Shown here piece after piece: positions 1-22,484 of a DNA stretch of 64,000 nucleotides (its first letter is position 1; each line of letters opens with the position of its first letter). The stretch covers positions 77,626 through 141,625 of the forward strand of contig JBNARC010000002.1 in the NCBI GenBank assembly GCA_049719955.1, given 5' to 3'. The DNA is from Moorellales bacterium (GTDB taxonomy: Bacteria > Bacillota > DSM-521 > Neomoorellales > SLTJ01). The translations under genes and the position numbers were made by a program. The notes beneath the pieces were generated by a model. That model was not told the DNA's origin, ran no database searches, and worked only from the letters and a program-made list of their open reading frames with translations.

Positions 1-947
1 TTCAGCCGGGTCATGGAGCGCAGGGCGTCAATCTCCATTATCCGGGAGCGAGAGGCGAAGCGCTCTCGGTCCGGCCGGGTGGGCCCGCAACCGGTAAGGT
101 TCAGACAACAGGGAGCCAGCACTACCGGGATCCCCCGTTCCAGCGGGGCCCGCAGCCGATCCATCCCTGCCGCCCGGTTACCTTTCAGCACTTCCTCTAT
201 AAGCCCGGCGGGCACGATGTCGATCAAGGCATCGAAAAAGCCTTGCCCTATCAACTGATCCATGGCCCGGTCGCTAATGCCCTGGGCGTGGAAGGAGCAA
301 ACCTCGTAGCCTCTTTCCTTTAAGAGCCTTTCCACCTCCCGGGCGCAGCGGGTGCAAAAGCCCATCTCGGTAATAGCTGCCGAAGGAAAGGGCAGCCGCA
401 GGTCGGTTCGCTCCCGGCTTTCCTCCACCATACCGGAAACCATCCCGGCTACCTGATCCAGGAGGTAGAGGAGCATGGGGTTGCTTCCCGCGGCCTCGAA
501 GAGCATCTGCATGACCACCAGGTCGGCGGCGCCAAACCATTCCTTAATATAGGTGGGCATGGCCGCCGGGACGGCGATGATCTTGGGTATGCCGAAGGGC
601 AGGCTGTGCATTACCCGGGCGCCCAGGAGGGCCAGGGTGGTGCCGCCGTAGGCCACCACGGCGTCCAGACTCCCCTGTCGCACCAGTTCCTGAGCCTTTA
701 TAATGGCCCCTCGGGTCATGGCCTCGGTGACCCGGAAACGCTCGGCCGAAGCCCGCAAGGCGGCTATGTCCTCCCCCGCCGCCCGGGCTATCTCCTCCGC
801 CGGCACCTCCGCGGGGTAGCAGGAGGCCTCTTTCATACTCACGTCCATCAGGATAACCCGGTGCCCCCGAGCGCGGATTCCCTCCCGCAGGTAATCAAGC
901 TGCTCGCCCTTGGTGTCTAAGGTGCCGATAAGCACCACGGCCTTCAT
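1..947 (-). CDS. UPF0261 (Tm-1-like, predicted nucleotide-binding) family protein; 3' end runs off the window
   Basis: Not in the ORF track because no stop lies inside the window. ATG at 947-945 is preceded by GGGGGGAGAGAA. Translation MKAVVLIGTLDTKGEQLDYLREGIRARGHRVILMDVS... stays open to position 1. GTLDTKG N-terminus is typical of UPF0261. Confidence 0.7.
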   Translation of the reverse strand, partial: MKAVVLIGTLDTKGEQLDYLREGIRARGHRVILMDVSMKEASCYPAEVPAEEIARAAGEDIAALRASAERFRVTEAMTRGAIIKAQELVRQGSLDAVVAYGGTTLALLGARVMHSLPFGIPKIIAVPAAMPTYIKEWFGAADLVVMQMLFEAAGSNPMLLYLLDQVAGMVSGMVEESRERTDLRLPFPSAAITEMGFCTRCAREVERLLKERGYEVCSFHAQGISDRAMDQLIGQGFFDALIDIVPAGLIEEVLKGNRAAGMDRLRAPLERGIPVVLAPCCLNLTGCGPTRPDRERFASRSRIMEIDALRSMTRL

Positions 948-1000
948 TTCTCTCCCCCCTGACGTGACCGCTTTTCGTCCCCAACCTTTCTACCGCGCTC

Positions 1001-2422
1001 TCAGCCCCTGATCGGACCGGCGGCCAACATGCGGTCCACCTCTTTGGCGGTGAGGCTATAACGCAGCAGAAACTCCTCCTCCGATACTTCCGGCCCCAAC
1101 CCCAGCTCCGCCCGCAACTCCTGCACCGTGGGCTGGGGGAAGGAGCGTCCCAGGATCTCCTTGGCCAGGGGTTGGGTAGCAATGCGGTCCATAACGTTAG
1201 GATCTATGGGCGCGGGCGAGGGACCGAACCACCCCGCGGCGTACTGCACCAAGTCGGTGGGTATTACCTTGTAGCGCTCGCCGTAGATCACGTTCATGGT
1301 GGCCTGAGTACCTACGAACTGAGAGTAGGGCGTGGCCATCACCGGGTACCCCAACTCCTCCCGGACGCGTACCACCTCCTCCAGCACTGCGGGCAGGCGG
1401 TCCAGCATTTTCATCTCCGAAAGCTGTCGCCTTAAGGTGCTCATCATTCCCCCGGGAACCTGGTGCACGTAGTAGTAGGCGTCGTGCTCCGCCGGCTGGC
1501 CTGCCGGTCGGTTGTCCCGCCGGGCCACGGCCCAGAAGTGCTCGGACATGACCTTTAGCCCCTCGCGGTCCAGTTCCCCCCAAAATCTCTCCCGTCCCGC
1601 CAGCCAGGGAGGCAGGGCCCTTACAATGTCCCCGCCCAGAATCGCCCCCTGGCCCAAGTAGGGCAGGTTATCCAGCAGGTTCTCCGCCGAGGGGAGAGAA
1701 GTACCGTAGGCGAGAGGAGGAACCGTGGTGTGTACCACTTCCGCCCCGCAGCGAATACCTTCCAGGTAGCACACGGTAGCCATGCCGGTATTGCAGTGGA
1801 AGTGCAGCTCCAAGGGTTTGGCTCCCAGCGCTTCCTTTAAGGCCGGAACCAGGGTGCGGACCCGCTCCGGAATGAGGAGCCCTCCCTGATCCTCCAGGCA
1901 CAGGGCGTCCACATCCGGGCTTTGGGCGAGCTCTAACGCCCGGTCGGCGTAATAACGGTCGGTATGCACGGGGCTAATGGTGTAGCAGAAAACCGGTACT
2001 ATCTCCTCAACGCCCGCCGCCCGGGCCAGGCGGGCCACCTTGAGGATATGCGGCACTTCGTGGGCGGCGTCCAGAATCCACACCCGTCTGATGCCGTTGG
2101 CCACCACCCGCTTCAGCACCAACTCGATGATCGAATAGGGCACCCGCTTAAACCCAATGAAACGCCGGCCGGTGGTGCCAAAGCTCAGGGGCGTACGCCT
2201 CACCCGGTCGGCTACCAGACGCATCCTTTCCCAGGGGTTTTCTTTGTGGTAGCGAACCGCCACCCCCATGTGGATGCTGGCGGTGAGGTCTATGGCCTTA
2301 AAGCCCACCGTATCCATGATGGGGGCTACCTCCAGGATCGCGGCCGTGTTTAGCCCGGTAGCGCCCCAAAGGCTCTGGTCGCCGTCCCGAACGGTGGTAT
2401 CCACAAACTTTACCTCTGCCAA
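1001..2422 (-). CDS. Carboxyltransferase of the pyruvate carboxylase B / transcarboxylase 5S / oxaloacetate decarboxylase alpha type, without fused biotinyl domain
   Basis: 473 aa. VKFVDTTVRDGDQSLW and LHFHCNTG match the RDxxQS and HxH metal-site motifs. VPGGMMSTL matches the conserved PGGM region of the family. Ends without a biotin carrier. Confidence 0.8.
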   Translation of the reverse strand: MAEVKFVDTTVRDGDQSLWGATGLNTAAILEVAPIMDTVGFKAIDLTASIHMGVAVRYHKENPWERMRLVADRVRRTPLSFGTTGRRFIGFKRVPYSIIELVLKRVVANGIRRVWILDAAHEVPHILKVARLARAAGVEEIVPVFCYTISPVHTDRYYADRALELAQSPDVDALCLEDQGGLLIPERVRTLVPALKEALGAKPLELHFHCNTGMATVCYLEGIRCGAEVVHTTVPPLAYGTSLPSAENLLDNLPYLGQGAILGGDIVRALPPWLAGRERFWGELDREGLKVMSEHFWAVARRDNRPAGQPAEHDAYYYVHQVPGGMMSTLRRQLSEMKMLDRLPAVLEEVVRVREELGYPVMATPYSQFVGTQATMNVIYGERYKVIPTDLVQYAAGWFGPSPAPIDPNVMDRIATQPLAKEILGRSFPQPTVQELRAELGLGPEVSEEEFLLRYSLTAKEVDRMLAAGPIRG

Positions 2423-2514
2423 CTTCGGGCCTCCTCAAGCCAGTTTTGCGCGGGGCCCGGCCGGGCGGCACGGCTGCGGCCGGCGCGGACGCCGCCGCCC
2501 CATATAGGGCCGGA

Positions 2515-4200
2515 TTAGCGATCCAGGATGTATACCACGCCCCGGTCCCCGTCCACCCGGATCCTTTGCCCGGTCTTGATCTTGCTGGTGGCCTCCACGC
2601 ATCCGGCCACGCAGGGCAAACCGTATTCCCGGGCCATTATTATCGGGTGGGATAAGGCTCCGCCCCCATCCGTGACCAAACCCCGTATGAGGTTGAAGGC
2701 CACCATCCAGGCGGTAGAGGTTCCCGGCGCCACCAGAATTTCGCCCGGCTTTAGATCCACCAGCCGGTCGGCGGTCATGATTACCCGGGCTACCCCCTCC
2801 ACGCAGCCCGGCGCCGCGGCCGCGCCGTACAGGTCGGCCTTCAACTCCTCCCGGACGATGGGGTGCTGGGCCGATACCAGCAGGGTGGGGTCGGAGCGTA
2901 TGACTACTTCAGCCTGCGAGATATCACCCACGAAGGGGGCGGGCTCCACTTCCAGATTGGCCAGGTACTCCTTTTTCCGGCGCTCGGCGTAGGGACGCAA
3001 GTTTATCCGGCCCATAGGTATGGCCGCCTTGCGGATCTCGTTGGGGTGCAGGAAATGGATGTCCTCGGGATCGTCGATGCAACCGGCCTCGGCGAAACGC
3101 CGGCCGAACTCGGTAACTATCCACCGGCCTAGGGCACCGATGTACAGGTCGCAGTAGTAGCAGTGGTCTTCGCTCCAGAACCCGGCCATGCGCGCCGCCC
3201 GCATCAGTACCCGGAAGGCTTCCCGCTGGGGTCCGGGTACTTCGCCCAACACCTCCGCCTCGGTGGTTTCCCTTTCCTTAACGATGCGCTCCCGCTCTGC
3301 ATCCAGGGCAAAGGTTTCTTGCGGGAGCAGGAGTTTTATCTCTGCCAGGGCCAGGCTTTGGTCTTCGATCCAGGCCGGGGTGTCGTAGGCGTGCATCCGC
3401 TGGCAGCGCCAGCCGTCCCGCACCAGGAACTGCCGGTACTCCTCTAACCAGCGTTGGGCTACCTCGGAGCTTTCCAGCTCCTTAAGGGTCTCCTTAGGAT
3501 CGTCGGCAAAAGCGGCCTCCAGTCCCATCTCCACCGCCCGGCGGGCCAAGCGCCACAACTCCCTGGCCACCCGGGCCGCCTGGTGCTCCAGTTCTCCGCC
3601 GGCGGTGCAACGGGCAAACCGGGGGTCGATGGTAGGCTCTACCCTCAGCAGTTCCCGCCACTGCTGTTGGAACAATCCGTTCAGGTAGTAGGCGGCCATG
3701 AGCATAAGGAAGTGGATTTCCGCTTCCTTGCGGTTGATGATGTAGGCAAAGTCCAGAAAGAAGTCCAAGAGTTCGTGGTTGGAAAGCCGGCGGATGTCCG
3801 ACCACTCCACCAATCCCCGCTTCCTCTTGGCCTCCTCGTAGGTGCGCATCAGTTCGGTCTTGTAGCCCGTCCAGACCCGGTTGAAATCCTCGATGAAAGG
3901 CCGGATCTTTTCCCGGAATACCGGCTCTCGCGCCCGCCGCTCCTCCTCCGTGGTCCTAATGGCGGTAATGTAGGGGTAACCGTTGATGAAGCGGGAATCC
4001 CAACCGTGAGTGGTGGGCAGGCACAAGGTTTCCGCCCCGTAGCGCACGCCGTGGTAGTACCAGTACCACCCCAGCCCCATGTAAAGGGGCTTCATGGGCG
4101 GTTTCCCGTGGGTGAAATCGCAGAGTAACACCCCGTAGGCTTTGGGATCGTTCTCGGGATCGTACTCGTAAAAACTCAGGTCATAGGCCGGTGCGAGCAT
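2515..4200 (-). CDS. PEP-utilising enzyme, phosphohistidine (swivel) subunit; phenylphosphate synthase PpsA-like
   Basis: Frame of track ORF 2515..4353. Start moved to ATG 4200 (SD AAGGAGAGGAGTGAGGAAGG, 20 nt after the upstream stop). C-terminus GGALSHPIIMAREYGLPCV is the mobile-domain phospho-His motif. No PEP/pyruvate-binding barrel. Confidence 0.7.
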   Translation of the reverse strand: MLAPAYDLSFYEYDPENDPKAYGVLLCDFTHGKPPMKPLYMGLGWYWYYHGVRYGAETLCLPTTHGWDSRFINGYPYITAIRTTEEERRAREPVFREKIRPFIEDFNRVWTGYKTELMRTYEEAKRKRGLVEWSDIRRLSNHELLDFFLDFAYIINRKEAEIHFLMLMAAYYLNGLFQQQWRELLRVEPTIDPRFARCTAGGELEHQAARVARELWRLARRAVEMGLEAAFADDPKETLKELESSEVAQRWLEEYRQFLVRDGWRCQRMHAYDTPAWIEDQSLALAEIKLLLPQETFALDAERERIVKERETTEAEVLGEVPGPQREAFRVLMRAARMAGFWSEDHCYYCDLYIGALGRWIVTEFGRRFAEAGCIDDPEDIHFLHPNEIRKAAIPMGRINLRPYAERRKKEYLANLEVEPAPFVGDISQAEVVIRSDPTLLVSAQHPIVREELKADLYGAAAAPGCVEGVARVIMTADRLVDLKPGEILVAPGTSTAWMVAFNLIRGLVTDGGGALSHPIIMAREYGLPCVAGCVEATSKIKTGQRIRVDGDRGVVYILDR

Positions 4201-4220
4201 GCCTTCCTCACTCCTCTCCT

Positions 4221-5258
4221 TCAGGCGTAAAACCACTTGACCAGCATTTCCGCCACCTGGTCTACCGCCGGCTTGCGCTCGGCGATCACCGCCGGCCGGG
4301 TTTGCAGCAGCACCACGTTTTCCGGAAAAGGACTCTCGGCGTCCACCGCCCACTCCACATCCTGCGGGACCTGGAAGTGCTCCTCTACCTTCTTGCCCAG
4401 CCGAGCGATTTCTTGTGCTTCCGCCTCGTTCAGGCAGAAGCTCGTCTGCCGCTCGGCGTTGACCTCCTGGTGGGCTACCCCCCGGTCCAGGGTAGTTACC
4501 CAGTGAAGTTTCCGGCCCAGTTTGCGGCCTACAACCCGCAGGCTCTTCTTGTCCAGGTAGAATACGTCCGGCGTGACCTCTCCGCTCACCACGCTTTCAC
4601 CCAGTCCCCAGTTGGCCTCGATCACCATGGTTTCGGGGTCACCGCTATTAGGGTCGGCCGTGAACAGCACCCCCGCGGCCCGGGCATTGACCATCTTCAA
4701 CACCGTCACCCCAATGGGGTCCCGTTCCAGAGGCAGACCGTGCCGGAGCCGGAAGGCCAGGGAGCGGGCATTGAAGGTACTGGCCCATACCCGGCGGATC
4801 TTCTCCAGTACCTCTTGAGGCCCTACCACGTTAAGGTAGGTTTCGTACTGACCCGGTCGACTCACCGGGCCGGCCGAACGGGTGGACACGGCCAGGCTCT
4901 GCCGGCCGCAGCGGCGGCAGAGTTCCCCGTAGGCCCCGGCTATGGTTTCCTCCAGTTCGGCCGGGAAAGGCTCGGATTCCACTATCTCCCGCAGCCGGGC
5001 GCTGAGCCGATCCAACTTATCGATGTCCTCCAGATCCACTCCCTCCTGCTCTATGACCTCCCGGATGCGGCCGCCGGCGCGGGTGCCCTCCAGGAAGTCC
5101 TCGTAGGCTCGGACCGACACCGCAAAGCCGGGTGGCACCCTAAGGCCCAGACGCAGGGCTTCTCCCAAATTGGCCGACTTCTTGCCCACCAGCGGGGTAT
5201 CTTCCTTACCCAAATCCTCCAGCCAGTAAACATATTGGGTGGCGCTTGGTTGGGCCAT
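4221..5258 (-). CDS. PEP synthase / PPDK N-terminal ATP-grasp subunit only; phenylphosphate synthase PpsB-like
   Basis: 345 aa. PLVGKKSANLGEAL and the overall pattern match the nucleotide-binding N-domain of PEP synthase. No His domain. Confidence 0.75.
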   Translation of the reverse strand: MAQPSATQYVYWLEDLGKEDTPLVGKKSANLGEALRLGLRVPPGFAVSVRAYEDFLEGTRAGGRIREVIEQEGVDLEDIDKLDRLSARLREIVESEPFPAELEETIAGAYGELCRRCGRQSLAVSTRSAGPVSRPGQYETYLNVVGPQEVLEKIRRVWASTFNARSLAFRLRHGLPLERDPIGVTVLKMVNARAAGVLFTADPNSGDPETMVIEANWGLGESVVSGEVTPDVFYLDKKSLRVVGRKLGRKLHWVTTLDRGVAHQEVNAERQTSFCLNEAEAQEIARLGKKVEEHFQVPQDVEWAVDAESPFPENVVLLQTRPAVIAERKPAVDQVAEMLVKWFYA

Positions 5259-5303
5259 AAAGCCTCACTCCTTTCTCCCTCTAAGCCACCCGCCCGGAAG
5301 GAC

Positions 5304-6017
5304 TTATTCCTCGGCTTTCGGTTCCGCCGCTCCCTCCGGCCCCTCTATCAAGGCCGTAGCATCGGTGACCCAGCCGAAAAAGGTCTTGACGTTGTAAAGC
5401 GTGGCCTCCTGTACCCCTTCCGGCCCCACGGCCGCCACCGCATCACCTACCAGAAGGGGGCGGTAGCCCAGATGATAGGCCCGTCTGAGGGTAGACTCTA
5501 CGCAGACATTGCTTGCTATTCCGACAAATATGAGCCACTTAACCGCCGCCGCCCTCAACACCGAATCCAGATTGGTCCCCTCAAAGCCGTCGTAGTAGGA
5601 CTTCCGGATTACCAGATCGCCCGCCTGAGGGGCTAACTCCTCCAGGATTTCCGCTCCCCAGGAGCCCTCCAGAGGCAGGAAAGGTCTCATTTCCGGGTGC
5701 TCCCGCAGTAACCGCAACGTCCCGGACTTTTGCCCCACCACCGAGTCCGGGCCCGAGAGGATGTCCACCTCGGGTCCGGGCGCCATCCGGAGATATACCA
5801 CCAAACGAACCCGCGAGCGTAAGCATGCGATTACCCGCCGACAATTGACCACCACCGGCCGCAGATCCACTTCCCGGGCCCTCCCCAGACGGAGAAAGTA
5901 GCCTTCGGGGTGCAGGAAGGCATTCTGCAGGTCTACGGCCACAAGTGCCGTCCGTGACCACTCCAGGGTGACCGGCTCCGGCTCAGCGGCTATCCGGGTC
6001 CAGACCGAACGGGGCAA
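5304..6017 (-). CDS. Isochorismatase-family cysteine hydrolase
   Basis: 237 aa. ALVAVDLQNAF and GIASNVCVESTLR (catalytic Cys) motifs. Confidence 0.8.
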   Translation of the reverse strand: MPRSVWTRIAAEPEPVTLEWSRTALVAVDLQNAFLHPEGYFLRLGRAREVDLRPVVVNCRRVIACLRSRVRLVVYLRMAPGPEVDILSGPDSVVGQKSGTLRLLREHPEMRPFLPLEGSWGAEILEELAPQAGDLVIRKSYYDGFEGTNLDSVLRAAAVKWLIFVGIASNVCVESTLRRAYHLGYRPLLVGDAVAAVGPEGVQEATLYNVKTFFGWVTDATALIEGPEGAAEPKAEE

Positions 6018-6030
6018 CGCCGCTACCTCC

Positions 6031-7362
6031 TCACATCTGCGCCACCAGGCCGGTATGGTAACGGCCGTGGCGGAACTCCGGCTGCTTCAACAGCCGGCGG
6101 TGAAACTCCAGGCTGGTGGCGATACCGTCAATCACCGTTTCCGCCAGGGCCTGCTCCAGCCTCTCCAGGGCCTCCGTTCGGTCCCGGCCCCAGGCGATCA
6201 GCTTAGCGATCAAAGGATCGTAATAAGGGGGTACCTTAACCCCTTCTTCTAGGGCGTGGTCCACCCTTATGCCCTCACCGGCGGGCAGGCGCAGCCGGCT
6301 CACCGTGCCCGGAGAAGGCATAAAAGTGTTGGGGTCTTCGGCGTAGATCCTGGCCTCTACCGCATGCCCCTTTTGCGGCACTTCCTCTTGGGCAAAGGGA
6401 AGGCTGCCGGTACCGGCCACCAGAAGCTGCGCCTGCACCAGATCCCTGCCAGTCACCATCTCCGTGACCGGGTGCTCCACCTGAATGCGCTTGTTGACTT
6501 CCAGGAAGTAGAACTGGCCCTGCGCATCCCGCAAAAATTCCACCGTACCGGCGTTTACGTACCCCAGGTGGGCGGCCAGGCGGACGGCCATGGCCGTCAC
6601 TCGTCGGCGGTCTTCTTCCGGGAGATCCGGAGCCGGGGATTCCTCTACCAGCTTCTGAAACCGCCGCTGCACCGAGCACTCCCGCTCCCAAAGGTGGACC
6701 ACCTTACGGCCGGGGGCGGCCAGGATCTGCACCTCGATGTGCCTGGGATTTTCCAGTAACTTCTCGATGTATACCCCCGAACCGCCGAAGTAGGCCTCGC
6801 TTTCCCGGCAGGCGGCCTCAAACACCGCCTCCAGTTGCGACCGGTCGTCCACCCGGTAGATGCCCTTGCCCCCACCTCCTCGATCGATCTTGAGCGCCAC
6901 CGGCGGTCCCAACCGCTCGAACCATTCCTCTACCTCCCGCAGGTCGTGCAGGCTCTCCAGCGATCCCGGAACCACCGGCACTCCGGCTTCCCTCGCCAGT
7001 TGCCGCGAACGGCACTTGGATTCCAGGACTTCCATCACGTCAGCCGGCGGCCCTATCCAGACCGCGCCCGCCTCCTCTACCGCCCGAGCAAACCGGGCAT
7101 TTTCGGCCAGGAAGCCGTAGCCCGGGTGAACGGCATCCGCTCCCGACGCCTTCAGCACCTCTACGATCTTGGGTATGTTTAGGTAACTATCCAGCGGCCG
7201 GGACCGCCCCAGAGGATAGGCCTCGTCGGCCTCCCGAACGTGCAGGGCCTCCCGATCCGCCTCCGAGTATACCGCTACCGCCTCCAGGCCCAGTTCGTGA
7301 CAGGCCCGTATCACCCGGCGGGCTATCTCACCTCGGTTGGCTACCAGAACTTTGGCGATCAT
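6031..7362 (-). CDS. accC: Biotin carboxylase subunit
   Basis: 443 aa. MIAKVLVANRGEIARRVIRACHELG N-terminus and full ATP-grasp biotin carboxylase pattern. Confidence 0.92.
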   Translation of the reverse strand: MIAKVLVANRGEIARRVIRACHELGLEAVAVYSEADREALHVREADEAYPLGRSRPLDSYLNIPKIVEVLKASGADAVHPGYGFLAENARFARAVEEAGAVWIGPPADVMEVLESKCRSRQLAREAGVPVVPGSLESLHDLREVEEWFERLGPPVALKIDRGGGGKGIYRVDDRSQLEAVFEAACRESEAYFGGSGVYIEKLLENPRHIEVQILAAPGRKVVHLWERECSVQRRFQKLVEESPAPDLPEEDRRRVTAMAVRLAAHLGYVNAGTVEFLRDAQGQFYFLEVNKRIQVEHPVTEMVTGRDLVQAQLLVAGTGSLPFAQEEVPQKGHAVEARIYAEDPNTFMPSPGTVSRLRLPAGEGIRVDHALEEGVKVPPYYDPLIAKLIAWGRDRTEALERLEQALAETVIDGIATSLEFHRRLLKQPEFRHGRYHTGLVAQM

Positions 7363-7441
7363 CCTCGTCTTCTCCCTCCCCGGGGACGCCCCCGTGCCGC
7401 GGACCCGGCCTGGGCACTTACCTGCCGCTCCACCAACGGGG

Positions 7442-7663
7442 CTAACACAGGTCCATAATTACGTCCCCTAGTTCTACCTCGTCGCCCTCCTCAACCCGGA
7501 TGGAGCGAACCACGCCTCCGTTTTCGGCCACCACCGGTATCTCCGTCTTCATGCACTGGACCAGGGCCACAATCTGGCCCGGCTCCACCGGCTGGCCCTC
7601 CCTTACGCTGATCTTGGCGATAAGACCGGCGACCGGAGCGGTTGCTTGCCACATGTCCGCCAT
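7442..7663 (-). CDS. Stand-alone biotin carboxyl carrier (biotinyl domain, 73 aa)
   Basis: C-terminal part of track ORF 7442..8011. Start set at ATG 7663 (AAAGGAGGG SD). The long N-terminal extension overlaps the upstream CoA-transferase. Biotinyl-lysine context VQCMKTEIP. Confidence 0.8.
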   Translation of the reverse strand: MADMWQATAPVAGLIAKISVREGQPVEPGQIVALVQCMKTEIPVVAENGGVVRSIRVEEGDEVELGDVIMDLC

Positions 7664-7690
7664 CCCTCCTTTTACCCTGACGAATGCCCC

Positions 7691-7732
7691 CCGGCAAGGT
7701 GCCAATGTACCTAGGGAAGACCCGGAACCGCC
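7691..7732 (-). repeat. Half-copy of the structured repeat family (GAGTACATTGG arm plus one closing-stem strand)
   Basis: CCGGCAAGGTGCCAATGTACCTAGGGAAGACCCGGAACCGCC aligns with the 3' end of the full copy at 60944-61154. Confidence 0.6.
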
Positions 7733-7761
7733 TGCCCACTCTAAACTGGGAATAACTACCA

Positions 7762-8841
7762 CTACTCTTCCGTCTGAAGGCAAGCGTTCCAGGCCACCTG
7801 ATAGCCCTCCACCCCGGGAGCAATCTCCGCCCTTTCCAGCACCCCCGCCGAGGCGGGCATAGGATGCGCCGCCACCTCCTCCACGTTTAGCACCGGGGTG
7901 AAGCCCACCTCCTCCCCTAGCACTTCGGCCCAATGTTCCGCCGCGGCGGAGGAAAACACTTCGCTTAAGGTACGAATGATCTCCGGCTGCTTTTCCGGCA
8001 AGAACTGCCAATCAATCCATTCTTCCCTGCCCAGACGTAGGCACACCTGGCGCCAGGCATGAACTTCCAGGGCGCATAGAGCCGCCCAGCGACCGCCCGC
8101 CACCGGATAGAGGTTATAACAGGCAAAGGCGCCGCCCAGGTAGCCCGGTACTCCCCCGGCCGCGGGGGCGGAGGCCGGCGGCACCAGGCGGTGCAATTCC
8201 CCTACCAGCCAGGGCAGGGTGGTACCCAAGAGGCTTAACTCCAGGTGGCAGCCCTTACCGGTCTCCTCTCTCCGGCGGAGGGCCAACAGCACCCCGATGA
8301 CCCCCCAGAGGGCGATGCTAAGGTCGGATATCTGCACCCCGGGAATGACCGGACGACCGTTACCGTCACGGTTCAGGTCTAAGACGCCGGCCAGGGCCAG
8401 GCAGTTAAGATCGTGGCCCGGCCGGGTGGCCCAGGTTCCCCGCCCCCCGTAGGCGCTCATGGAGACGTAGATGAGCGCCGGATTATATTCCTTGACCGTC
8501 TGGTAGTCGATCCCCAGCCGGGAGGTAACCTGCGGCCGAAAGGACTCAACCAGGACGTCCGCCCGGCGCACCAACTCCCAAAACCGCTCCCGGTCCGGCT
8601 GGGACTTCAAATCCAGGTTCACGATCTCTTTTCCCCGGTTGATGTTGGTGTAGGTTAGGTTGGCACCGCCGAAGAGGGGAGGGACGGTCTTGGCCCAGTC
8701 ACCCCGCCGGGGATCTTCTACCTTTACCACCTCGGCCCCGTAGGCGGCCAAAATGCCCGTACAGAGGGGACCGGGTAGCAACCGGGACAGATCCACCACT
8801 TTTGTGCCGCGTAAGGTTTGCCGCAGGTACACCTCGGGCAC
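7762..8841 (-). CDS. Family III CoA-transferase (CaiB/BaiF/racemase type)
   Basis: 359 aa. GTKVVDLSRLLPGPLCTGILAAYGAEVVKVEDPRRGDW is the family N-terminal signature. Confidence 0.8.
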   Translation of the reverse strand: MPEVYLRQTLRGTKVVDLSRLLPGPLCTGILAAYGAEVVKVEDPRRGDWAKTVPPLFGGANLTYTNINRGKEIVNLDLKSQPDRERFWELVRRADVLVESFRPQVTSRLGIDYQTVKEYNPALIYVSMSAYGGRGTWATRPGHDLNCLALAGVLDLNRDGNGRPVIPGVQISDLSIALWGVIGVLLALRRREETGKGCHLELSLLGTTLPWLVGELHRLVPPASAPAAGGVPGYLGGAFACYNLYPVAGGRWAALCALEVHAWRQVCLRLGREEWIDWQFLPEKQPEIIRTLSEVFSSAAAEHWAEVLGEEVGFTPVLNVEEVAAHPMPASAGVLERAEIAPGVEGYQVAWNACLQTEE

Positions 8842-8916
8842 CTCCGTAATGGAGCCGGGTTACAAATCCGGCCCCTCACGTTCGACCAGCATAATCCTAT
8901 CAAAGATGGGTTAGCC

Positions 8917-8931
8917 CGGTAAATGTTACCG
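8917..8931. promoter_or_regulatory. Candidate operator: inverted repeat CGGTAA-ATG-TTACCG in the AT-richer gap upstream of the carboxylase operon
   Basis: Perfect 6+6 inverted repeat with a 3-nt spacer, between the regulator stop (8974) and the CoA-transferase start (8841). Confidence 0.25.
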
Positions 8932-8973
8932 AACAATAAGGTTTAGGAAGCTCATTTGGACCCTTTATACATA

Positions 8974-11730
8974 TCAGAAGAATTCCGGATGGTAGAAGTG
9001 GATGACCCTTAAAGCCACCTCCAGATTCAGCCGGCGGTCGGCTTGGTCAATCTCTGCGCCCAGGAGATCACGTATTCTTTCCAGTCGGTAACGAATAGTA
9101 TTGGGGTGACAAAACAGGGCCTCGGCCGCGCCCTTTATGCTTCCGTTAGCGGCATAATAGCTGGCCAAGGTCTTGAGATAGCCGGTATCCCTCCTGCCAT
9201 CCCGTTCTATCAGGGGGCCTAACAGGGCCACCGCCGCCTGGTAGAGACAGCGAGCGGTCTCCTCGTGGGCCAAAGCCTGGTAGAGGCCTAGTTCCTGGAA
9301 GGACGTAATCCCAGGCGGCAACTTCAGCCGCCGCGCGTACTCTACGGCGAAGCATGCCTGCGAGAAGGCGGCCGAAAAGGCGCTCAAGTCCTCCGCATAG
9401 CCCCCCACTCCCACCCAAAGGCGGTAATTCCGCGCCATGGTTTCTAACTGCCGCCGCGCCCTTTCCAGCCGACCGGGTATCAATACCACCAGCCGACCCT
9501 CGACCAGGGCGCAGAGGTTGTCGGAGAAGGCCTGCCGGATAAAAGCCCTTATTTCCGCCACTTCCGCCCGAGACAGTTTTCGCGACTGCCCGGCGTCCGC
9601 CGTGTTTTCCTCCGGGAGGGCCCGTGTCGGAAGGCAAACTACTACCAGGTGCGGGCGGGCCACATCGTAGCCCAGTCCGGCCGCCCGGGCCAGCACCTCC
9701 CCGGCCGAGGGACCACCGCCGACCAGGCCGGAAACCAACTCTTGCTCGGCAAACTGTATTACTCCCTGGGCCACTCGACTCTGCTCCTTGAGTAGCTCCA
9801 GAGCGTAGATAGGCAGCACCCGGAGCACTATTTCCTTAATCTCCTCGTATTCCTCCTTGCTATCCACCAGCACCCCCAGGTACCCACCGATATCTGCGGC
9901 CAGTTCGATCGGCAACAGAACCATTTCCCCGGCCGGCGGCACGGGCACCACGCAGGGCGGCTCCCGGCCAGCGGGAACACTCCTCGCACTTTCGGCCACC
10001 GCTCCCCGCAGCCCCTTTTCCGCCGCCGCCAGTTCCTCGGCCGCGAACCCCGCCCAGGCCCGTCGCACCAATCGGCAGTCGTAAAAGGCCACCTTCCGCT
10101 GCAGGCTCTTCGCCAGGGCCTCGGTAATGGCCTTGAGACCGGCCCCATCCAGTATTAGACGCGCGAGCTGCTCGTTGGTACCGGTGATGCGCTCCAGGCG
10201 CCGGGTCATCCTCCTTTCCGAGGCAAACAAGCGAGCGTTTCTTACCGCCATGGCCAGTTGACTGGCCACCAGGGACAGGAAGCGCAACTGGGAAGAAGTG
10301 AGCTGGACCGTAGGCCCCACCCAGGCCAACAGGCTACCCAGGTATTCCCCTCCCGTGGCAATTACCGCCCGTACCTGCGTGGCCGCCCCCAGAGTCCGGG
10401 CCTCGGTCTCTACCCAGTCCCCCGGTATCGGGTCGGCCCGCAGGTCCTTCACCTCCAGCTCGGCCGAACCGGCAGGCAAAAAGCGCCCGATCCAGGCACC
10501 GGCAACGCCTTCGGCGGCCACAATCCGGGGCCGGTCCGAGCCCTCCGGACAAACGGCTACGGCCACACCCAGCACCGGCATCACCTGGGGAATGGCCTGA
10601 GCGGCCTTCTTCACCAGGCCCTCCGGGTCTAATAGGTTAAAGTCCCGACTGAGCTCGTAAAGCACCCGGGACTGAGTCTCCTCCAGCTTGATGCGGCATA
10701 CCAGACGGGCGTTGGCAATGGCTACGGCCAGCTGGGAAACTACGGATTTCAACAGGGTTACGTCCTCTTCGGTAAAGCCTCCCGGCTTATTGGTTACATG
10801 CATTACCCCGATACAGCGGTTGCCTACCACCACCGGTAGACTCACCACACTCCGGGCGGGAAACAGGTCTAGGAGATGCTTAACGAACCTGGGGTCCTGG
10901 GGAGCGTCGTTGGAGAAATACGGTTCTCTCGTCTTGAACACCCGCACCGCGTTACTTACGTCTTCGGTAGTTACCTTGTAACGACTTATTCGGTGTTCGT
11001 CGTAGGAGCCGAAGGCGGGCTTTTGCAAGGCCAGGTACCCGGTTTCCTCCTCATAGAGCAATAGGCCCGCACCTTCCGCCCCCACCATGTTGCGGGCGGC
11101 CTCCAGCACTCTTTCCAGCGCCGCCTCAAAACCGCCTCCTTCCAGAAGGCGCTCGTTGGCCTCCCGCAGGCAGGCCAGGGTATCGTTCAGGAGCTTTCGC
11201 TCTTTGTTCAGGCTGTCCACCGTACTCAATAAGTGCCCATAATGGCGGCCCAGACCGGTAAGTAACCGGTGCGCTCCCGCCGGCACCAAGTCCGCTGCCC
11301 CGCCCAACAGGGCGAACCCGAACACCCGCTGCTCGGGCAAAAAGAAGCCCGTGCCTACTGCCCGGGCCGCCGGCGGTTCTCCAACGGCGGCCAACAGGGC
11401 GTTTATCGCCCGAAGGTCGAGTTCCTGCTCTCTCTCGCCTCCGGACGGGAGGGGATACGGGAAGATGTCGGCACCCAGAAAGAGCCGTCGGCGGTCTACC
11501 TCCCCGCCCTCATTCTTCCGCATTAGCGTAACCGAACCGCCGGACGATCGAGAACCCAGAAACAGTAAGGCGCCGGAACAGAAGCTATTGGCCACCAAGT
11601 CGGCCAACAGCCCCTCGTATCCCCACCACAACGGATCTTCTTCCGCCCGGAAGGTGGGGCACGCTTCGGCCGCAGAGGACGGACCCCACCCGCCGTCGCG
11701 CGCTTCCTCCCGTTGCACCGTGCCCTCCAT
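8974..11730 (-). CDS. Large transcriptional regulator: multiple GAF domains plus PucR-type C-terminal HTH
   Basis: 918 aa. GAF-like segments (e.g. GAEGAGLLLYEEETGYLAL...VGNRCIGVMHV). C-terminus GSIKGAAEALFCHPNTIRYRLERIRDLLG is the PucR-family HTH. Confidence 0.8.
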   Translation of the reverse strand: MEGTVQREEARDGGWGPSSAAEACPTFRAEEDPLWWGYEGLLADLVANSFCSGALLFLGSRSSGGSVTLMRKNEGGEVDRRRLFLGADIFPYPLPSGGEREQELDLRAINALLAAVGEPPAARAVGTGFFLPEQRVFGFALLGGAADLVPAGAHRLLTGLGRHYGHLLSTVDSLNKERKLLNDTLACLREANERLLEGGGFEAALERVLEAARNMVGAEGAGLLLYEEETGYLALQKPAFGSYDEHRISRYKVTTEDVSNAVRVFKTREPYFSNDAPQDPRFVKHLLDLFPARSVVSLPVVVGNRCIGVMHVTNKPGGFTEEDVTLLKSVVSQLAVAIANARLVCRIKLEETQSRVLYELSRDFNLLDPEGLVKKAAQAIPQVMPVLGVAVAVCPEGSDRPRIVAAEGVAGAWIGRFLPAGSAELEVKDLRADPIPGDWVETEARTLGAATQVRAVIATGGEYLGSLLAWVGPTVQLTSSQLRFLSLVASQLAMAVRNARLFASERRMTRRLERITGTNEQLARLILDGAGLKAITEALAKSLQRKVAFYDCRLVRRAWAGFAAEELAAAEKGLRGAVAESARSVPAGREPPCVVPVPPAGEMVLLPIELAADIGGYLGVLVDSKEEYEEIKEIVLRVLPIYALELLKEQSRVAQGVIQFAEQELVSGLVGGGPSAGEVLARAAGLGYDVARPHLVVVCLPTRALPEENTADAGQSRKLSRAEVAEIRAFIRQAFSDNLCALVEGRLVVLIPGRLERARRQLETMARNYRLWVGVGGYAEDLSAFSAAFSQACFAVEYARRLKLPPGITSFQELGLYQALAHEETARCLYQAAVALLGPLIERDGRRDTGYLKTLASYYAANGSIKGAAEALFCHPNTIRYRLERIRDLLGAEIDQADRRLNLEVALRVIHFYHPEFF

Positions 11731-11762
11731 TGCGCGCTCCCCCTCGCCGTTGGGCTTGCTCC

Positions 11763-11788
11763 GGGGGCGGCCGGAACCGGCCGCCCCC
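11763..11788 (-). terminator. Perfect 12-bp GC hairpin between the ligase gene and the regulator gene (no clear U-tract)
   Basis: GGGGGCGGCCGG-aa-CCGGCCGCCCCC. Confidence 0.3.
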
Positions 11789-11797
11789 GGGCGGCTC

Positions 11798-13219
11798 TTA
11801 ACTCTTCACCCTTACCAGCGCCGTCTTGTACTGGGTGCGCGGCAGGGTGTTGGGCGCCACCAGGGTCGCCTCGATGCGCACGTTGAGCAGGTCGCGTACC
11901 TTATCTTCCACGGATCGCTTTAGCGCCGCCAAGTCCTGGGCCAAAGACTTTACCTCTACGTCCACGGGTATGGGGTTATCAAACCTCACCTGGCCGGGAT
12001 AGTCCTTGACTATCTGGATATAGCCAGTGACCGCATCGGCGAAGTGGGTGAGAATGACGTCGCGGATGGCCGAGGGGAATACGTTCATGGCCTTATAGAT
12101 CAGCATGTCGTCTATTCGACCTATGCAGCGTATCTTCGGAGACTGCCGGCCGCAGGCGCAACCCCTTCCTTCCACCCGAATGAGATCGGCGGAGCGATAC
12201 CTCACCGCCGGGGTGGCCTCCCGTCGCAGGGCAGTGTAGACCGGTTCCCCTGTAACCCCCGGCTCCCAAGGCAGGTGCTCGCCCGTCTGAGGATCGATAA
12301 GCTCTACGGCTACATCCCTAAGGGCCACAAAATGCATTCCGGTTTCCTCTTCGCACTCCGCCCAGACTCCCGGAAACACGTCCGCCAGGCCCATAATCTC
12401 GCGCACCGAGGGATTGCCCCAGAGCTCTTTGAGCTTGCGCCGGATGGGCTCCTCCCCCAGTCCGGGCTCACCGCCGCCCAGAACCTTCTCTATGCCTATA
12501 TCCCTGGCCTCTACTCCCAGGGCTTCGCGACAGTGCTCGCCCAGGTACACGTCGAACGAGGCGGTAGCCTGCAGGACGTTACAGTGAGTATAGCGCATAA
12601 TCTCCAACACCCGGGCGGTAGAAACCCCCCCGATCCAGACCGTGGTGGCCCCCACGTGCCTTATGCCCTCGAAGTAGGGGTCGCCGCCGGCAAATAGGGG
12701 AACGGCGGTAGTATGGGCCACGATGTCTCCCCTTCGCACTCCGGCGGTGTGGAAGAACATGGCCAGGCCGTCGCGGAAGGCCTCGAGGTCATTGCGGGTT
12801 AAGCCGTAAAAAACCGGACGCCCCGAGGTTCCGGAAGAGGAAAGCACCTGCACCAGATCTTCCGTCTTGGCGGTCTGCAACAATCCCAGGGGCATCTCCC
12901 TGGTGGTGGAATTCTGGGCGTTGCGCACGTCTTCCTTGGTAAGAAAGGGCAGGTCGCGCAACTGCTCCAGAGAACGTAGTTTTTCCGGATCGAAGTCCTT
13001 CAGACGTTCCCGATAAAAGGGGCTGGCTTCCTTCACGTACTGCAGCTGACGCGGAAGCTGCGCCAGCCAATACCGTTGCACTTCCTCCCAGGACATAGTT
13101 TCTAACTCCGGGTTCCAATACTCGGCCAAGTCCAAACCCTCCCCCAACCTGGTGTGGTCGGAACGCCACCCTATCCAACTGCCTACGGCGCTACAGTCTA
13201 AGTATACTAGTTCCTTCAT
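11798..13219 (-). CDS. Phenylacetate-CoA ligase-like (PaaK / F390 synthetase family) adenylate-forming enzyme
   Basis: SSGTSGRPVFYGLTRNDLEAF and the overall PaaK pattern. The real start may be TTG at 13129 (GGGGGAGGG SD), giving the usual ..YWNPELETM.. N-terminus. Confidence 0.75.
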   Translation of the reverse strand: MKELVYLDCSAVGSWIGWRSDHTRLGEGLDLAEYWNPELETMSWEEVQRYWLAQLPRQLQYVKEASPFYRERLKDFDPEKLRSLEQLRDLPFLTKEDVRNAQNSTTREMPLGLLQTAKTEDLVQVLSSSGTSGRPVFYGLTRNDLEAFRDGLAMFFHTAGVRRGDIVAHTTAVPLFAGGDPYFEGIRHVGATTVWIGGVSTARVLEIMRYTHCNVLQATASFDVYLGEHCREALGVEARDIGIEKVLGGGEPGLGEEPIRRKLKELWGNPSVREIMGLADVFPGVWAECEEETGMHFVALRDVAVELIDPQTGEHLPWEPGVTGEPVYTALRREATPAVRYRSADLIRVEGRGCACGRQSPKIRCIGRIDDMLIYKAMNVFPSAIRDVILTHFADAVTGYIQIVKDYPGQVRFDNPIPVDVEVKSLAQDLAALKRSVEDKVRDLLNVRIEATLVAPNTLPRTQYKTALVRVKS

Positions 13220-13301
13220 AATGATACAAAGGTTCTGGCGGCCAAATTTGTTCGCTTCGACTTGTTATTGGACTACAACTTCGGGCCAGACGACCGGCGG
13301 A

Positions 13302-13928
13302 CTAATCGATCAGCACCAGGGCCAGGGCCAGCAGGCCCGGCACCTCCTCCGGAGGATGACTGCCCGCCGGATGGATCTCCCACCCGGCGGCCAGGGCCAT
13401 GGCGTAGGCGTCGAATCCCGCCGCCTCCATGCTCGGCCGGGCCAAAAGCGGGAAGCGGCAGCCCTCAGCCGGATTGATCAGGGCGCGGCAGGGCTCGTTC
13501 CCGCAGAGATAGCGCCTGCAAGAGCCGGAACCGAAACCGGCCGCCAGATAGTAGCCGTCGTAGAAGGCCGCGGTCTCCACCGCGCTTACCGCCTCGTACA
13601 CCGCCCGGCTGGCCCGCCCGTCCCACCGCAACAAGAGGCCCCAGGAATACCGGGCCACTACCTCCGGGCTCTCGGCTAAGTTAGGCGCCCAGGGCGGACA
13701 GTTGCCGCAGGCTCCGTAATGCCGACACCTGGGCGCCTGACACTTCAGGCGCACCCGGGGATCCAGGCGCAGGTCTTCGCGGCGGAGAACCCTACCGGCC
13801 GCAGCCCCGAACTCCCGGGCCAGGGCCAGGTACCGATCCAGGTCCGCCCGCACCGCCTCTTCCCGCCGCCTGGCGGCCTCGGCCAGAGAGCGGACCCGCA
13901 GGTAGCGGCTTCGCAGGGCCGAGTTCAT
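13302..13928 (-). CDS. DUF2284-type predicted metal-binding (Cys-rich) protein
   Basis: 208 aa. RVRLKCQAPRCRHYGACGNCPPW and a second Cys cluster (CRRYLCGNEPC). ATGA overlap with the upstream hydrolase. Confidence 0.65.
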   Translation of the reverse strand: MNSALRSRYLRVRSLAEAARRREEAVRADLDRYLALAREFGAAAGRVLRREDLRLDPRVRLKCQAPRCRHYGACGNCPPWAPNLAESPEVVARYSWGLLLRWDGRASRAVYEAVSAVETAAFYDGYYLAAGFGSGSCRRYLCGNEPCRALINPAEGCRFPLLARPSMEAAGFDAYAMALAAGWEIHPAGSHPPEEVPGLLALALVLID

Positions 13929-14560
13929 CCTTCACCCGCCTCCAGCGCCGCGAGAATGGAGGCGCTGTCCATGACCCGGCCGAAAACCTCGGCCATGTTG
14001 CGCAGGGTGGCCCGGTGCAGTTCCTCATCCAGGGCGGCGTTTACGTCGCTCCCGAACACCACCTGGTAATCGCGGAAGAAGGCGTCCCGGGCGGTGGATT
14101 CGCAGCAGATGTTGGTGACCGTACCGCAGATGATTACGGTGTCGATCTGGTTGGGTCCTTTAAGATTGCGCAGAACGGTTTCCAGCTCCGTGTTGTAGAA
14201 GGCGCTGAACCTCCGCTTACGAATTACCATCTCTCCCGGCCGGGGGGCTATTTCTGGGTATACCTCCACCCCCGGAGTACCCTCCCGCAGCCCTACCTCC
14301 TTCAGGCGGGGAAACATGCGCACCTGGAGGGGACAAAGCCACAGTTCCGGATGATGAACGTGCACGGTGTATATCACCGGCACGCCCAATCGCCGGCATC
14401 CCTCGATTAGCGCCTTAACCCGGGGAATCTGCCGCCTGGCCTCGGGCACTTCCATGATCGCCCCCGGCGCCACAAAATCGTTTTGCAAATCGATTACCAG
14501 TAACGCGCTCCTCTCCCGCCGAAAGGTCCAGGGAACCCCGGCTTGACCGGCCTGTCCCAC
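13925..14560 (-). CDS. Isochorismatase-family cysteine hydrolase (second copy)
   Basis: 211 aa. ALLVIDLQNDFV and CGTVTNICCESTARDA motifs. GTG start with AAGGAGGAG SD. Confidence 0.85.
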   Translation of the reverse strand: MGQAGQAGVPWTFRRERSALLVIDLQNDFVAPGAIMEVPEARRQIPRVKALIEGCRRLGVPVIYTVHVHHPELWLCPLQVRMFPRLKEVGLREGTPGVEVYPEIAPRPGEMVIRKRRFSAFYNTELETVLRNLKGPNQIDTVIICGTVTNICCESTARDAFFRDYQVVFGSDVNAALDEELHRATLRNMAEVFGRVMDSASILAALEAGEG

Positions 14561-14587
14561 AATTCAACTCCTCCTTTCCGCCTGGTT

Positions 14588-14624
14588 AAGAAAGGGGGGG
14601 GGGCGCCCTCGCACCCGCGCCCCC
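14588..14624 (-). terminator. Rho-independent terminator after the symporter/micro-ORF unit
   Basis: GGGGGCGC-loop-GCGCCCCC followed by CCCCCTTTCTT on the minus strand. Confidence 0.55.
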
Positions 14625-14658
14625 TCCCGGTCCAGCGCCCGCAAGATACCTGGCGGTC

Positions 14659-14778
14659 TCAGTTAGAGGACTGCGGCCGCTTCTTGATTGCCCCCCACCA
14701 CAGGGCAAAACCGCCGTACACCAGCATCAGGACCATGATCATAATCATCCACAAGCGGGTAACCACTACTTCTTCCAT
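14659..14778 (-). CDS. Micro-ORF, 39-aa single-pass membrane peptide
   Basis: Below the ORF-track cutoff. GGTGGGGAGG SD. MEEVVVTRLWMIMIMVLMLVYGGFALWWGAIKKRPQSSN. ATG lies 3 nt after the stop of the preceding micro-ORF. Confidence 0.5.
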   Translation of the reverse strand: MEEVVVTRLWMIMIMVLMLVYGGFALWWGAIKKRPQSSN

Positions 14779-14781
14779 TGC

Positions 14782-14892
14782 TTAAGCCTCCCCACCTTGT
14801 TGACGTCCGCCCAAACGCACGAGAAAATCGATTATCAAGGTTGCCACCAACACCGTTACCATTACCTTCCAGAATAGTACCCATATTAACAT
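14782..14892 (-). CDS. Micro-ORF, 36-aa single-pass membrane peptide
   Basis: Below the ORF-track cutoff. GGGGGGAAGG SD. MLIWVLFWKVMVTVLVATLIIDFLVRLGGRQQGGEA. Lies 65 nt downstream of the symporter stop. Confidence 0.5.
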   Translation of the reverse strand: MLIWVLFWKVMVTVLVATLIIDFLVRLGGRQQGGEA

Positions 14893-14957
14893 TTCGCCTT
14901 CCCCCCTTGCCCGTATGTCCGGATGGTCCCGTCGCGGCGGGTTCGAGCCCACCGCCC

Positions 14958-16445: not shown

Positions 16446-16508
16446 CTTTCCTCCTTAATTCAGGCGCTCCTTTCGACCCAGAAAACGCCCCCAACTTGCT
16501 CCGGTTCC

Positions 16509-16535: not shown

Positions 16536-16552
16536 AAGTCGGAACAACCCGG

Positions 16553-18574: not shown

Positions 18575-18585
18575 CCCTGCGGCCG

Positions 18586-22463: not shown

Positions 22464-22484
22464 CTCCTTAGCCGGCCGGGCCGA

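Follow-up and report, generated by a model that had tools for sequence, protein, structure and literature searches.

A putative operon for phosphorylation-coupled, biotin-dependent carboxylation with a split Pps-type kinase and a UPF0261 protein in a Moorellales bacterium and other strict anaerobes

Introduction

Lignin-derived aromatic ketones can be degraded by phosphorylation followed by carboxylation. In the Hpe pathway of Rhodococcus rhodochrous GD02, which was described in 2022, the phenolic hydroxyl group of 4-hydroxyacetophenone is phosphorylated by the split Pps-type dikinase HpeHI (PMC9618137). In the Acv pathway of Sphingobium SYK-6 (acvABCDEF), described in the same year, acetovanillone is phosphorylated by AcvAB (bioRxiv 10.1101/2022.04.28.489975). 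HpeCBA and AcvCDE represent the biotin carboxyl carrier protein (BCCP), the biotin carboxylase (BC), and a carboxyltransferase (CT) with about 26% sequence identity to PycB; only the phosphorylated ketone is carboxylated, with one ATP converted to ADP, the phosphate is then removed by the HAD phosphatase HpeD or AcvF, and a CoA ligase and a hydrolase follow (PMC9618137; 10.1101/2022.04.28.489975). Homologous xcc genes, likewise clustered with homologues of hpeHI, are present in the anaerobe Aromatoleum aromaticum EbN1 (PMC9618137; 10.1101/2022.04.28.489975). Here, we describe a minus-strand gene cluster at positions 1 to 8,841 of a 64,000-nucleotide stretch of DNA from a Moorellales bacterium (assembly GCA_049719955.1, contig JBNARC010000002.1, positions 77,626 to 141,625; hereafter the window), in which the genes of a split Pps-type kinase are located between those of a biotin-dependent carboxylase.

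Acetovanillone is also phosphorylated by MarK, a UPF0261 protein reported in 2025, which converts ATP to ADP, is encoded by the first gene of the marK-acvCDEF operon, and binds its substrate via the residues G195, H219, and H304 (PMC12624787). We lean towards reading the Moorellales locus as a catabolic operon for the phosphorylation-coupled, biotin-dependent carboxylation of a carbon atom next to a carbonyl group, as in the Hpe, Acv, and Xcc systems. A hydroxy-aryl alkyl ketone is the probable substrate, by analogy and in view of the host lineages. The first-pass annotation of this DNA had stated that a Pps-type kinase combined with a biotin enzyme containing a PycB-type CT belongs to no described pathway, which is contradicted by Hpe, Acv, and Xcc (PMC9618137; 10.1101/2022.04.28.489975). 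Its proposal of an undescribed pathway holds in part: the general logic was already published between 2022 and 2025, but new here is a version in a lineage of anaerobes with divergent kinases, both kinase types, no phosphatase, and a conserved RutB-like cysteine hydrolase. Searches of the article collection consulted here returned no description of this anaerobe variant; an article on anaerobic benzene degradation that was considered (PMC13416013) was irrelevant to it.

Results

Gene content of the core cluster and the split Pps-type kinase

Domains were assigned by Pfam profile matches on the translated open reading frames (ORFs) of the window, and NCBIfam models were used for subfamily scores and cut-offs. 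Starting at the left window edge, the minus strand encodes a UPF0261 (Tm-1/MarK family) ATP-binding protein (947..<1; PF06792 and PF23189), which is cut by the edge after the N-terminal 315 of 413 amino acids, and the stand-alone 5S/PycB-type carboxyltransferase CT1 (1001-2422, 473 amino acids; HMGL-like and PYC_OADA). These are followed by a PpsA-like subunit (2515-4200, 561 amino acids), a PpsB-like ATP-grasp (nucleotide-binding) dikinase subunit (4221-5258, 345 amino acids; PPDK_N, PF01326, E 5e-86), a RutB-like cysteine hydrolase of the isochorismatase family (5304-6017; PF00857), a BC (6031-7362, 443 amino acids; three BC Pfam domains), a minimal BCCP (7442-7663), and a family III CoA-transferase (7762-8841; PF02515). 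The intergenic gaps from the UPF0261 gene to the CoA-transferase gene are 53, 92, 20, 45, 13, 79, and 98 nt, and a further 132 nt separate the latter from a regulator gene. The first-pass annotation had listed eight co-directional genes with gaps of 13 to 98 nt, and the ORF calls and Pfam confirmed both the arrangement and the domains. None of the proteins encoded in the region 1-8841, nor the regulator, reached an NCBIfam equivalog cut-off. Identical or near-identical proteins are attributed by NCBI to metagenome-assembled genomes labeled "Moorellales bacterium".

The lysine of the MKT motif of the BCCP lies 34 residues from the C-terminus, and the matches to PF00364 and NF006079 (E 8e-19) agree with the earlier description of a stand-alone biotin carrier of 73 amino acids (70 in the NCBI call). 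The BC shares 43-47% identity with the BC of Acv-type clusters. In the PpsA-like protein, the only strong Pfam match was the PEP-utilizers mobile domain (PF00391, residues 484-554) with the motif GGALSHP (His518), whereas the PEP/pyruvate TIM barrel (PEP-utilizers_C) was not found by Pfam; both features had been noticed before. The precomputed Pfam assignment is Rph_4th, and the protein comprises an N-terminal substrate region and a C-terminal phosphohistidine swivel domain. The PpsA-like family is large, with 780 matches at E ≤ 1e-10. The best 120 of these have identities of 66-87% and lengths of about 560 amino acids. The split into two genes (approximately 345 + 560 amino acids) is kept in 61 of 83 loci. 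A PEP synthase split by a frameshift is ruled out, since more than 60 genomes keep the 345/560-amino-acid split and the barrel domain is absent; the pair is a genuine two-gene kinase. When both subunits were searched against the PDB, every entry returned bore the name PEP synthase, PPDK, PTS enzyme I, or pyruvate kinase, among them 9goj (387 amino acids, named PEP synthase), and no characterized HpeHI or AcvAB chain was recognized among these matches. Two PpsA-like genes, each 68% identical to that of the window, are present on a Syntrophorhabdales contig (L016; 5476-7176 on the plus strand and from about 9541 onward on the minus strand).

The carboxyltransferases belong to the Acv/Hpe type

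For the comparison of the CTs and of both kinase types, syntenic plasmid-borne clusters served as proxies for the characterized HpeH/I and AcvA-E, and the clade placement rests on these proxies. They comprised the cluster acvA-acvB-BCCP-BC-CT-HAD-acetoacetate-CoA ligase of R. leguminosarum pRlBT01c (L088), the cluster Tm-1-like (MarK)-BCCP-BC-CT-HAD of P. putida YC-AE1 (L085) and S. bisphenolicum pBAR1 (L084), a variant cluster of the Rhodococcus pRB98 type (plasmids pRB98 and pA; L086, L087), and a kinase-less CT-AccB-AccC cluster of Burkholderia (L090); OadA of Ilyobacter (L089) was the outgroup. A second CT was identified on a sister-assembly contig (L001), which is 99.7% identical to positions 1-15260 of the window and from which, rather than from the window's own contig, the gene content to the left of the window edge was deduced; a look-up of the exact CT1 sequence matched no contig. 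It carries the remainder of the UPF0261 gene (413 amino acids in total), the CT2 gene (L001:15581-17011, 476 amino acids), a nitroreductase-family gene, and an acyl-CoA dehydrogenase gene. CT1 and CT2, whose genes flank the UPF0261 gene, are 64% identical.

Both proteins share 43-49% identity with the CTs of the syntenic Acv/MarK-type clusters, but only 29% with OadA. The stretch LLRGQN of OadA aligns with GTTGRRF in the window CTs and with LTTGMRF or GTGLRF in the Acv-type CTs, so that window and Acv-type CTs have a TTGxRF signature in common in place of LLRGxN. The arginine of LLRGxN is, as we take it, the residue binding the carboxylate of pyruvate in pyruvate carboxylase (PC), OadA, and the 5S enzymes. 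In a neighbor-joining tree (no bootstrap), the window-type CTs formed a sister group to the Acv/MarK clade with OadA far outside. Judged from these alignments, the window CTs fall in the Acv/Hpe-type CT clade. The best scores of CT1 against the PycB and OadA models of NCBIfam were 323 (cut-off 402) and 308 (cut-off 734), and PDB sequence searches with the CT returned only entries named OadA, PC, or 5S.

The two paralogs differ in the (I/L)KD / KD(P/M)GG motif, the lysine of which is the carbamylated metal ligand in PC, OadA, and the 5S enzymes: CT2 keeps the lysine, and CT1 has a glutamate at this position. The same Lys/Glu pair of CTs is found in a Bacillota metagenome-assembled genome (MAG; L011), and CT1 groups with the Glu-type paralog of that genome. 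An inactivity of CT1 was considered and dropped; it is not implied by the glutamate because the same residue occurs in the sole-copy CTs of Syntrophorhabdales and Rhodococcus clusters. In public annotation, the CT genes of the window (1001-2422) and of L084 and L085 are named "biotin carboxyl carrier protein" although a biotinyl domain is absent; the error seems to be systematic. A CT of the same broad clade (42-43% identical) is encoded together with AccB and AccC on plasmid BTHE68_p2 of Burkholderia sp. THE68 (L090, 7983-11395), where neither a kinase nor a phosphatase gene accompanies it. An acetoacetate decarboxylase gene lies about 5 kb upstream of it, and genes for biotin synthesis, a carbonic anhydrase, and an acetate symporter are present in the same 17-kb stretch; this CT-AccB-AccC set may be a kinase-independent ketone carboxylase.

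The best NCBIfam matches of the cluster proteins, namely models for PEP synthase, PycB, and OadA, would by name fit a role in central metabolism, in which the PEP-pyruvate-oxaloacetate node would be served by a split PEP synthase together with a pyruvate carboxylase or oxaloacetate decarboxylase of several subunits. We consider this extremely improbable and rejected it on domain content, motifs, and scores: all of these matches stay far under their cut-offs, the PpsA-like protein has no PEP/pyruvate TIM barrel, the split recurs in more than 60 genomes, and the CTs lack the pyruvate-binding arginine of LLRGxN and are as distant from OadA as stated above.

Conservation of the gene set

Seeded with the PpsA-like protein, a scan of species-representative genomes yielded 79 loci, the neighborhoods of which were tabulated by BLAST and clustering. 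All are from uncultured anaerobes (Desulfobacterota, Syntrophorhabdales, Dehalococcoidia/Chloroflexota, and Bacillota). Among the loci with full flanks (at least 8 kb on both sides, n = 36), PpsB was found in 83%, the isochorismatase-family hydrolase in 61%, UPF0261 in 56%, a 5S-type CT in 53%, BC in 36%, DUF2284 and an AMP-forming CoA ligase in 33% each, and a thiolase, often with a DUF35/OB-fold partner, in 22%. The locus with the most similar PpsA (L171, 87% identical) shows the gene order of the window, BCCP-BC-hydrolase-PpsB-PpsA-CT-UPF0261. The order is PpsB-PpsA-BCCP-BC-UPF0261-CT-hydrolase in L173 (PpsA 72% identical), GAF/PucR-UPF0261-PaaK-CT-PpsB-PpsA in L172 (73%), and UPF0261-CT-PpsB-PpsA-BCCP-BC in a Dethiobacter locus (L007). 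A third architecture, typical of Syntrophorhabdales, comprises a CT-BCCP fusion, BC, UPF0261, PpsB, and PpsA, with a ligase and a DUF35-thiolase pair next in order. The gene set is therefore conserved in other genomes, as the proposed neighborhood comparison was meant to reveal, and at the level of sequence the arrangement is more than chance because all seven core genes recur elsewhere, in some genomes in the same order and in others shuffled. Since the set stays together while the order shuffles, a functional tie of the Pps-like pair to BC/BCCP/CT and to UPF0261 is supported by these comparisons.

In an independent scan of metagenomes seeded with the CT, the loci flanked by 5 kb or more on either side fell into two clean classes, of which class I contains CTs at least 50% identical to those of the window (n = 9) and class II the Acv/MarK-type CTs (n = 14). 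The class I loci returned window-type Pps and window-type UPF0261 in seven of nine cases each (a MarK-type protein was the best match in one), which counts in favor of an Hpe/Acv-like operon. In class II, AcvAB was present in 7/14 and MarK-type UPF0261 in 6/14. Both kinds of kinase occurred together in six of the nine class I loci and in none of class II. An HAD phosphatase accompanied every class II CT (14/14) and no class I CT (0/9), whereas the isochorismatase was restricted to class I (4/9 versus 0/14). BC was encoded in 13/14 class II loci. The informative cases for a BC and a BCCP embedded with a class I CT are the window, L171, and L173. In the class I metagenome loci (L091-L119), the CT gene is almost always located directly beside the UPF0261 gene.

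The Pps/hydrolase module lacks a CT or BC within 10 kb in 47% of the full-flank loci, a figure that would suit two independent neighboring modules, one for activation by kinase and hydrolase and the other a biotin carboxylase with a substrate of its own. Such a coincidence appears quite improbable: seven genes stay together through three gene orders, window-type Pps was recovered in most of the CT-seeded class I loci (7/9), and the kinase genes of the window are enclosed by BC/BCCP on one side and CT on the other, at intergenic distances of 13-92 nt. Five MAGs of Desulfobacterales, Desulfatiglandales, and other Deltaproteobacteria (L029, L030, L032, L041, and L049) encode DUF2284-isochorismatase-PpsB-PpsA together with a divergent radical-SAM gene, followed by an enoyl-CoA hydratase gene in four of five and accompanied by genes for a LIV-type ABC transporter in several; a carboxylase within 10 kb was found in none of them.

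The UPF0261 protein and the RutB-like hydrolase

The UPF0261 protein of the window matched the MarK structure (PDB 9MPY) with an E-value of 3.6e-47. As in the loci of the marK-acvCDEF type (Novosphingobium aromaticivorans; L085, L084), its gene stands beside those of BCCP, BC, and CT, and the protein retains residues equivalent to G195 and H219 as well as the DTK (D-T-K) ATP motif. Against NF002674 (cut-off 335), it scored 312.9, and the MarK-type proteins scored 469-502.

The hydrolase is closely related to RutB (PDB 8bkd, E 1.2e-47), and the alignment keeps the motifs VD(L/M)QNA, K(S/P)xYxGF, and SNVCVEST. These motifs carry the Asp-Lys-Cys triad of the isochorismatase family, which by alignment is intact. 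The hydrolase is the tightest partner of the Pps pair, also where no carboxylase is nearby, and a DUF2284 gene is usually located directly upstream of it. A hydrolase that constant (61% of the full-flank loci), with an intact triad and RutB as a close relative, is also compatible with the same enzyme classes acting on another substrate, namely an amide, a ureido or N-heterocyclic compound, or a non-aromatic enolizable carbonyl compound, in which case C-N cleavage by the RutB-like enzyme would be a core step. Activation by the Pps-like enzyme would then take place at the oxygen of an amide or enol, or at an amine, as with phenylphosphoamidate synthase, and the resulting ketone would be the substrate of the carboxylase. 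The PpsA clade distinct from AcvA, the DUF2284-hydrolase-PpsB-PpsA loci of Desulfobacterales without a nearby carboxylase, and the activity of Pps-family enzymes on aniline (PMC7500099) all point in this direction. On the other side, the CT clade and the PaaK-like and AMP-forming ligases, DUF35/thiolase pairs, and SDR proteins of the related loci fit a logic leading from an aryl ketone to a beta-ketoacyl-CoA. Many host lineages, moreover, are Syntrophorhabdus, Desulfatiglans, and other taxa linked to anaerobic aromatic degradation, for which these two genera are known. We therefore regard such a substrate as unlikely, although less so than the other alternatives to a hydroxy-aryl alkyl ketone that are weighed here.

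Extent of the cluster and surrounding genes

A regulator of 918 amino acids with GAF, GGDEF-like, and PucR-HTH domains (Pfam) is encoded immediately upstream of the CoA-transferase gene (8974-11730, minus strand), in accordance with the first-pass annotation, and regulators of the same GAF/PucR architecture adjoin the clusters in L007 and L172. The same strand further encodes a PaaK-like aryl-acid CoA ligase (11798-13219, NCBI start 13129; Pfam, NCBIfam), a DUF2284 metal-binding protein (13302-13928; Pfam), and a second isochorismatase-family hydrolase (13925-14560; Pfam, NCBIfam). A possible extension of the cluster (14958-23399, minus strand; Pfam, NCBIfam) contains genes for an SSF transporter, an Acs-family CoA ligase (16553-18574, 673 amino acids), a beta-keto acid cleavage enzyme (BKACE; 18586-19560), an SDR protein, another SSF transporter, and another SDR protein; these genes may be linked to the core cluster. 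The eight genes listed at first thus stand, but the cluster continues past the left edge with CT2 and the other genes seen on L001, and related genes are also present upstream of the regulator. An assignment of the 673-amino-acid ligase as an HpeE-like acetoacetyl-CoA synthetase was dropped, since NCBIfam places it in the acetate-CoA ligase subfamily. A homolog of the PaaK-like ligase is encoded between UPF0261 and CT in L002, L012, L021, L110, L113, L115, and L172, and the family III CoA-transferase is not conserved, with homologs only in L056 and L072. None of the PaaK-like ligase, CoA-transferase, BKACE, and Acs-family ligase is orthologous to HpeE/HpeF, VceAB, or AcsA/TioL. A UbiD domain was found neither in the minus-strand ORFs scanned by Pfam between 1 and 23399 nor in the Pfam-annotated genes of L001. 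Further to the right, positions 23976-45818 contain housekeeping genes (proBA, obg, mreBC, PBP2, rodA, minD).

A promoter and terminator scan of positions 1-14700 gave no more matches than expected from shuffled sequences and no intergenic terminators; a single transcript is neither supported nor refuted by it. The sole strong sigma-70-like match on the operon strand (8482-8510, minus strand; TCGACT-17-TATAAT) lies within the CoA-transferase gene upstream of the BCCP gene, and such matches were not above the shuffled expectation. The Rfam scan detected no regulatory RNA in the cluster. Elsewhere in the window, it identified a cobalamin riboswitch (38317-38527, minus strand, 99.4 bits) directly upstream of a gene for a CobT-like phosphoribosyltransferase (37157-38224). 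Beside a tRNA gene (60782-60866, minus strand), a stretch of about 240 nt (60925-61158) matches the sequence that separates CT2 from the nitroreductase gene (L001:17071-17307) with 86.7% identity and represents a small dispersed repeat.

Discussion

The domain content of the cluster, the clade of its CTs, and the recurrence of the gene set are consistent with the following scheme, which is a proposal in each of its catalytic steps as well as in its substrate. A hydroxylated compound, by analogy for example 4-hydroxyacetophenone, would be phosphorylated by the split dikinase and/or by the MarK-like UPF0261 protein. In the former case, the PpsB-like ATP-grasp subunit would load His518 of the PpsA-like subunit with formation of AMP and Pi, and in the latter, ADP would be formed. 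BC would carboxylate the biotin of the 73-amino-acid BCCP, from which CT1 and CT2 would transfer CO2 onto the carbon beside the carbonyl group to yield a beta-keto acid. The PaaK-like ligase or the CoA-transferase, together with BKACE (or thiolases in other genomes), might then convert this product to acyl-CoA units.

Several observations weigh against an Hpe/Acv-type operon. The kinases are only remote relatives of the characterized ones, with 28% identity between PpsA and AcvA and 35% between PpsB and AcvB, and PpsA falls outside the subfamily NF006153 (cut-off 578), for which it scores 209.5 and AcvA 772; by these scores, the subunits are not orthologous. Identity of the UPF0261 protein to MarK-type proteins is likewise low (27-29%), the equivalent of MarK H304 is an isoleucine, and the "YHxHN" motif is absent across the window-type subgroup. 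A homolog of an HAD or PTP/Tyr phosphatase is absent from the 64-kb window and from the 83 PpsA-seeded loci. The conserved RutB-like hydrolase is accounted for by no role in the Hpe scheme, and transporters of the SSF and TRAP types would suit an anion as the substrate. Finally, BC was present within 10 kb in none of the nine class I CT loci, so that the CT of these loci either obtains BC and BCCP in trans or acts with UPF0261 in a different manner.

Some of these points would be explained if the two kinases were not redundant. The AMP-forming dikinase would phosphorylate the substrate irreversibly, and after carboxylation, UPF0261 would transfer the phosphate of the aryl phosphate back to ADP, regenerating ATP and replacing the HAD phosphatase, by which the aerobic pathway wastes the phosphate. 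This would explain the presence of both kinases in one operon, the absence of a phosphatase, and the strictly anaerobic, energy-limited hosts, but we rate it as distinctly unlikely. As related alternatives, UPF0261 and the TIM barrel of the CT might form a new ATP-coupled unit, or the RutB-like hydrolase might remove the phosphate.

Compared with the described pathways, the locus resembles Hpe and Acv in the clustering of a two-subunit Pps-type dikinase with separate BCCP, BC, and PycB-type CT, in CTs that belong to sister clades with a common substitution in the substrate motif, and, putatively, in a subsequent CoA activation of the beta-keto acid. It differs from them not only in its kinase subunits and in the lack of an HAD phosphatase, but also in a UPF0261 gene in the same operon, in two CT paralogs, one of which has a glutamate for the carbamylated lysine, in the RutB-like hydrolase and DUF2284 as conserved partners of window-type loci, and in its strictly anaerobic hosts. 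The MarK-type loci examined contain MarK instead of AcvAB, never both, and always an HAD phosphatase. XccABC of A. aromaticum EbN1, compared by description only, offers an anaerobic route for p-ethylphenol and 4-hydroxyacetophenone with the same enzyme classes and, in addition, an SDR alcohol dehydrogenase, a CoA ligase, and a thiolase; in contrast to the window organism, however, EbN1 is a denitrifying Betaproteobacterium, and neither UPF0261 nor an isochorismatase is mentioned for its cluster in the accounts consulted. Phenylphosphate synthase of Thauera aromatica and phenylphosphoamidate synthase of Desulfatiglans anilini likewise consist of an ATP-grasp subunit and a His-swivel subunit without the PEP/pyruvate barrel. 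Their carboxylase partner is a UbiD-type enzyme acting on the ring, whereas the partner in the window is a biotin enzyme in a cluster without a UbiD gene. The Rhodococcus pRB98-type cluster shares BCCP-BC-CT with the window, including a CT with glutamate at the carbamyl-lysine position, and continues with an OB-fold/thiolase pair and an AMP ligase alongside. Its CT is 40-41% identical to those of the window, its kinase parts are a small PEP-utilizer protein and a PPDK-like protein of 579 amino acids, accompanied by a hypothetical protein of 525 amino acids, and a Tyr-phosphatase-like gene takes the place of the HAD phosphatase gene.

Biochemical proof for a catabolism of aromatic ketones by phosphorylation and subsequent carboxylation comes from aerobes only (2022 and 2025), and the Xcc system of the denitrifier A. 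aromaticum EbN1 has been implicated by proteomics alone. The locus described here probably represents a distinct version that is widespread in strict anaerobes, among them syntrophs, sulfate reducers, Dehalococcoidia, and Moorellales, organisms that in sediments and digesters process aromatic carbon from lignin and other sources. It ties the uncharacterized PpsA-like family, a subgroup of UPF0261, a RutB-like hydrolase, and DUF2284 to a testable function. Only a few biotin carboxylases form C-C bonds on non-acid ketones, and the encoded enzymes would enlarge this group; how cells short of energy meet or regain the cost of phosphorylation might also be learned from the locus.

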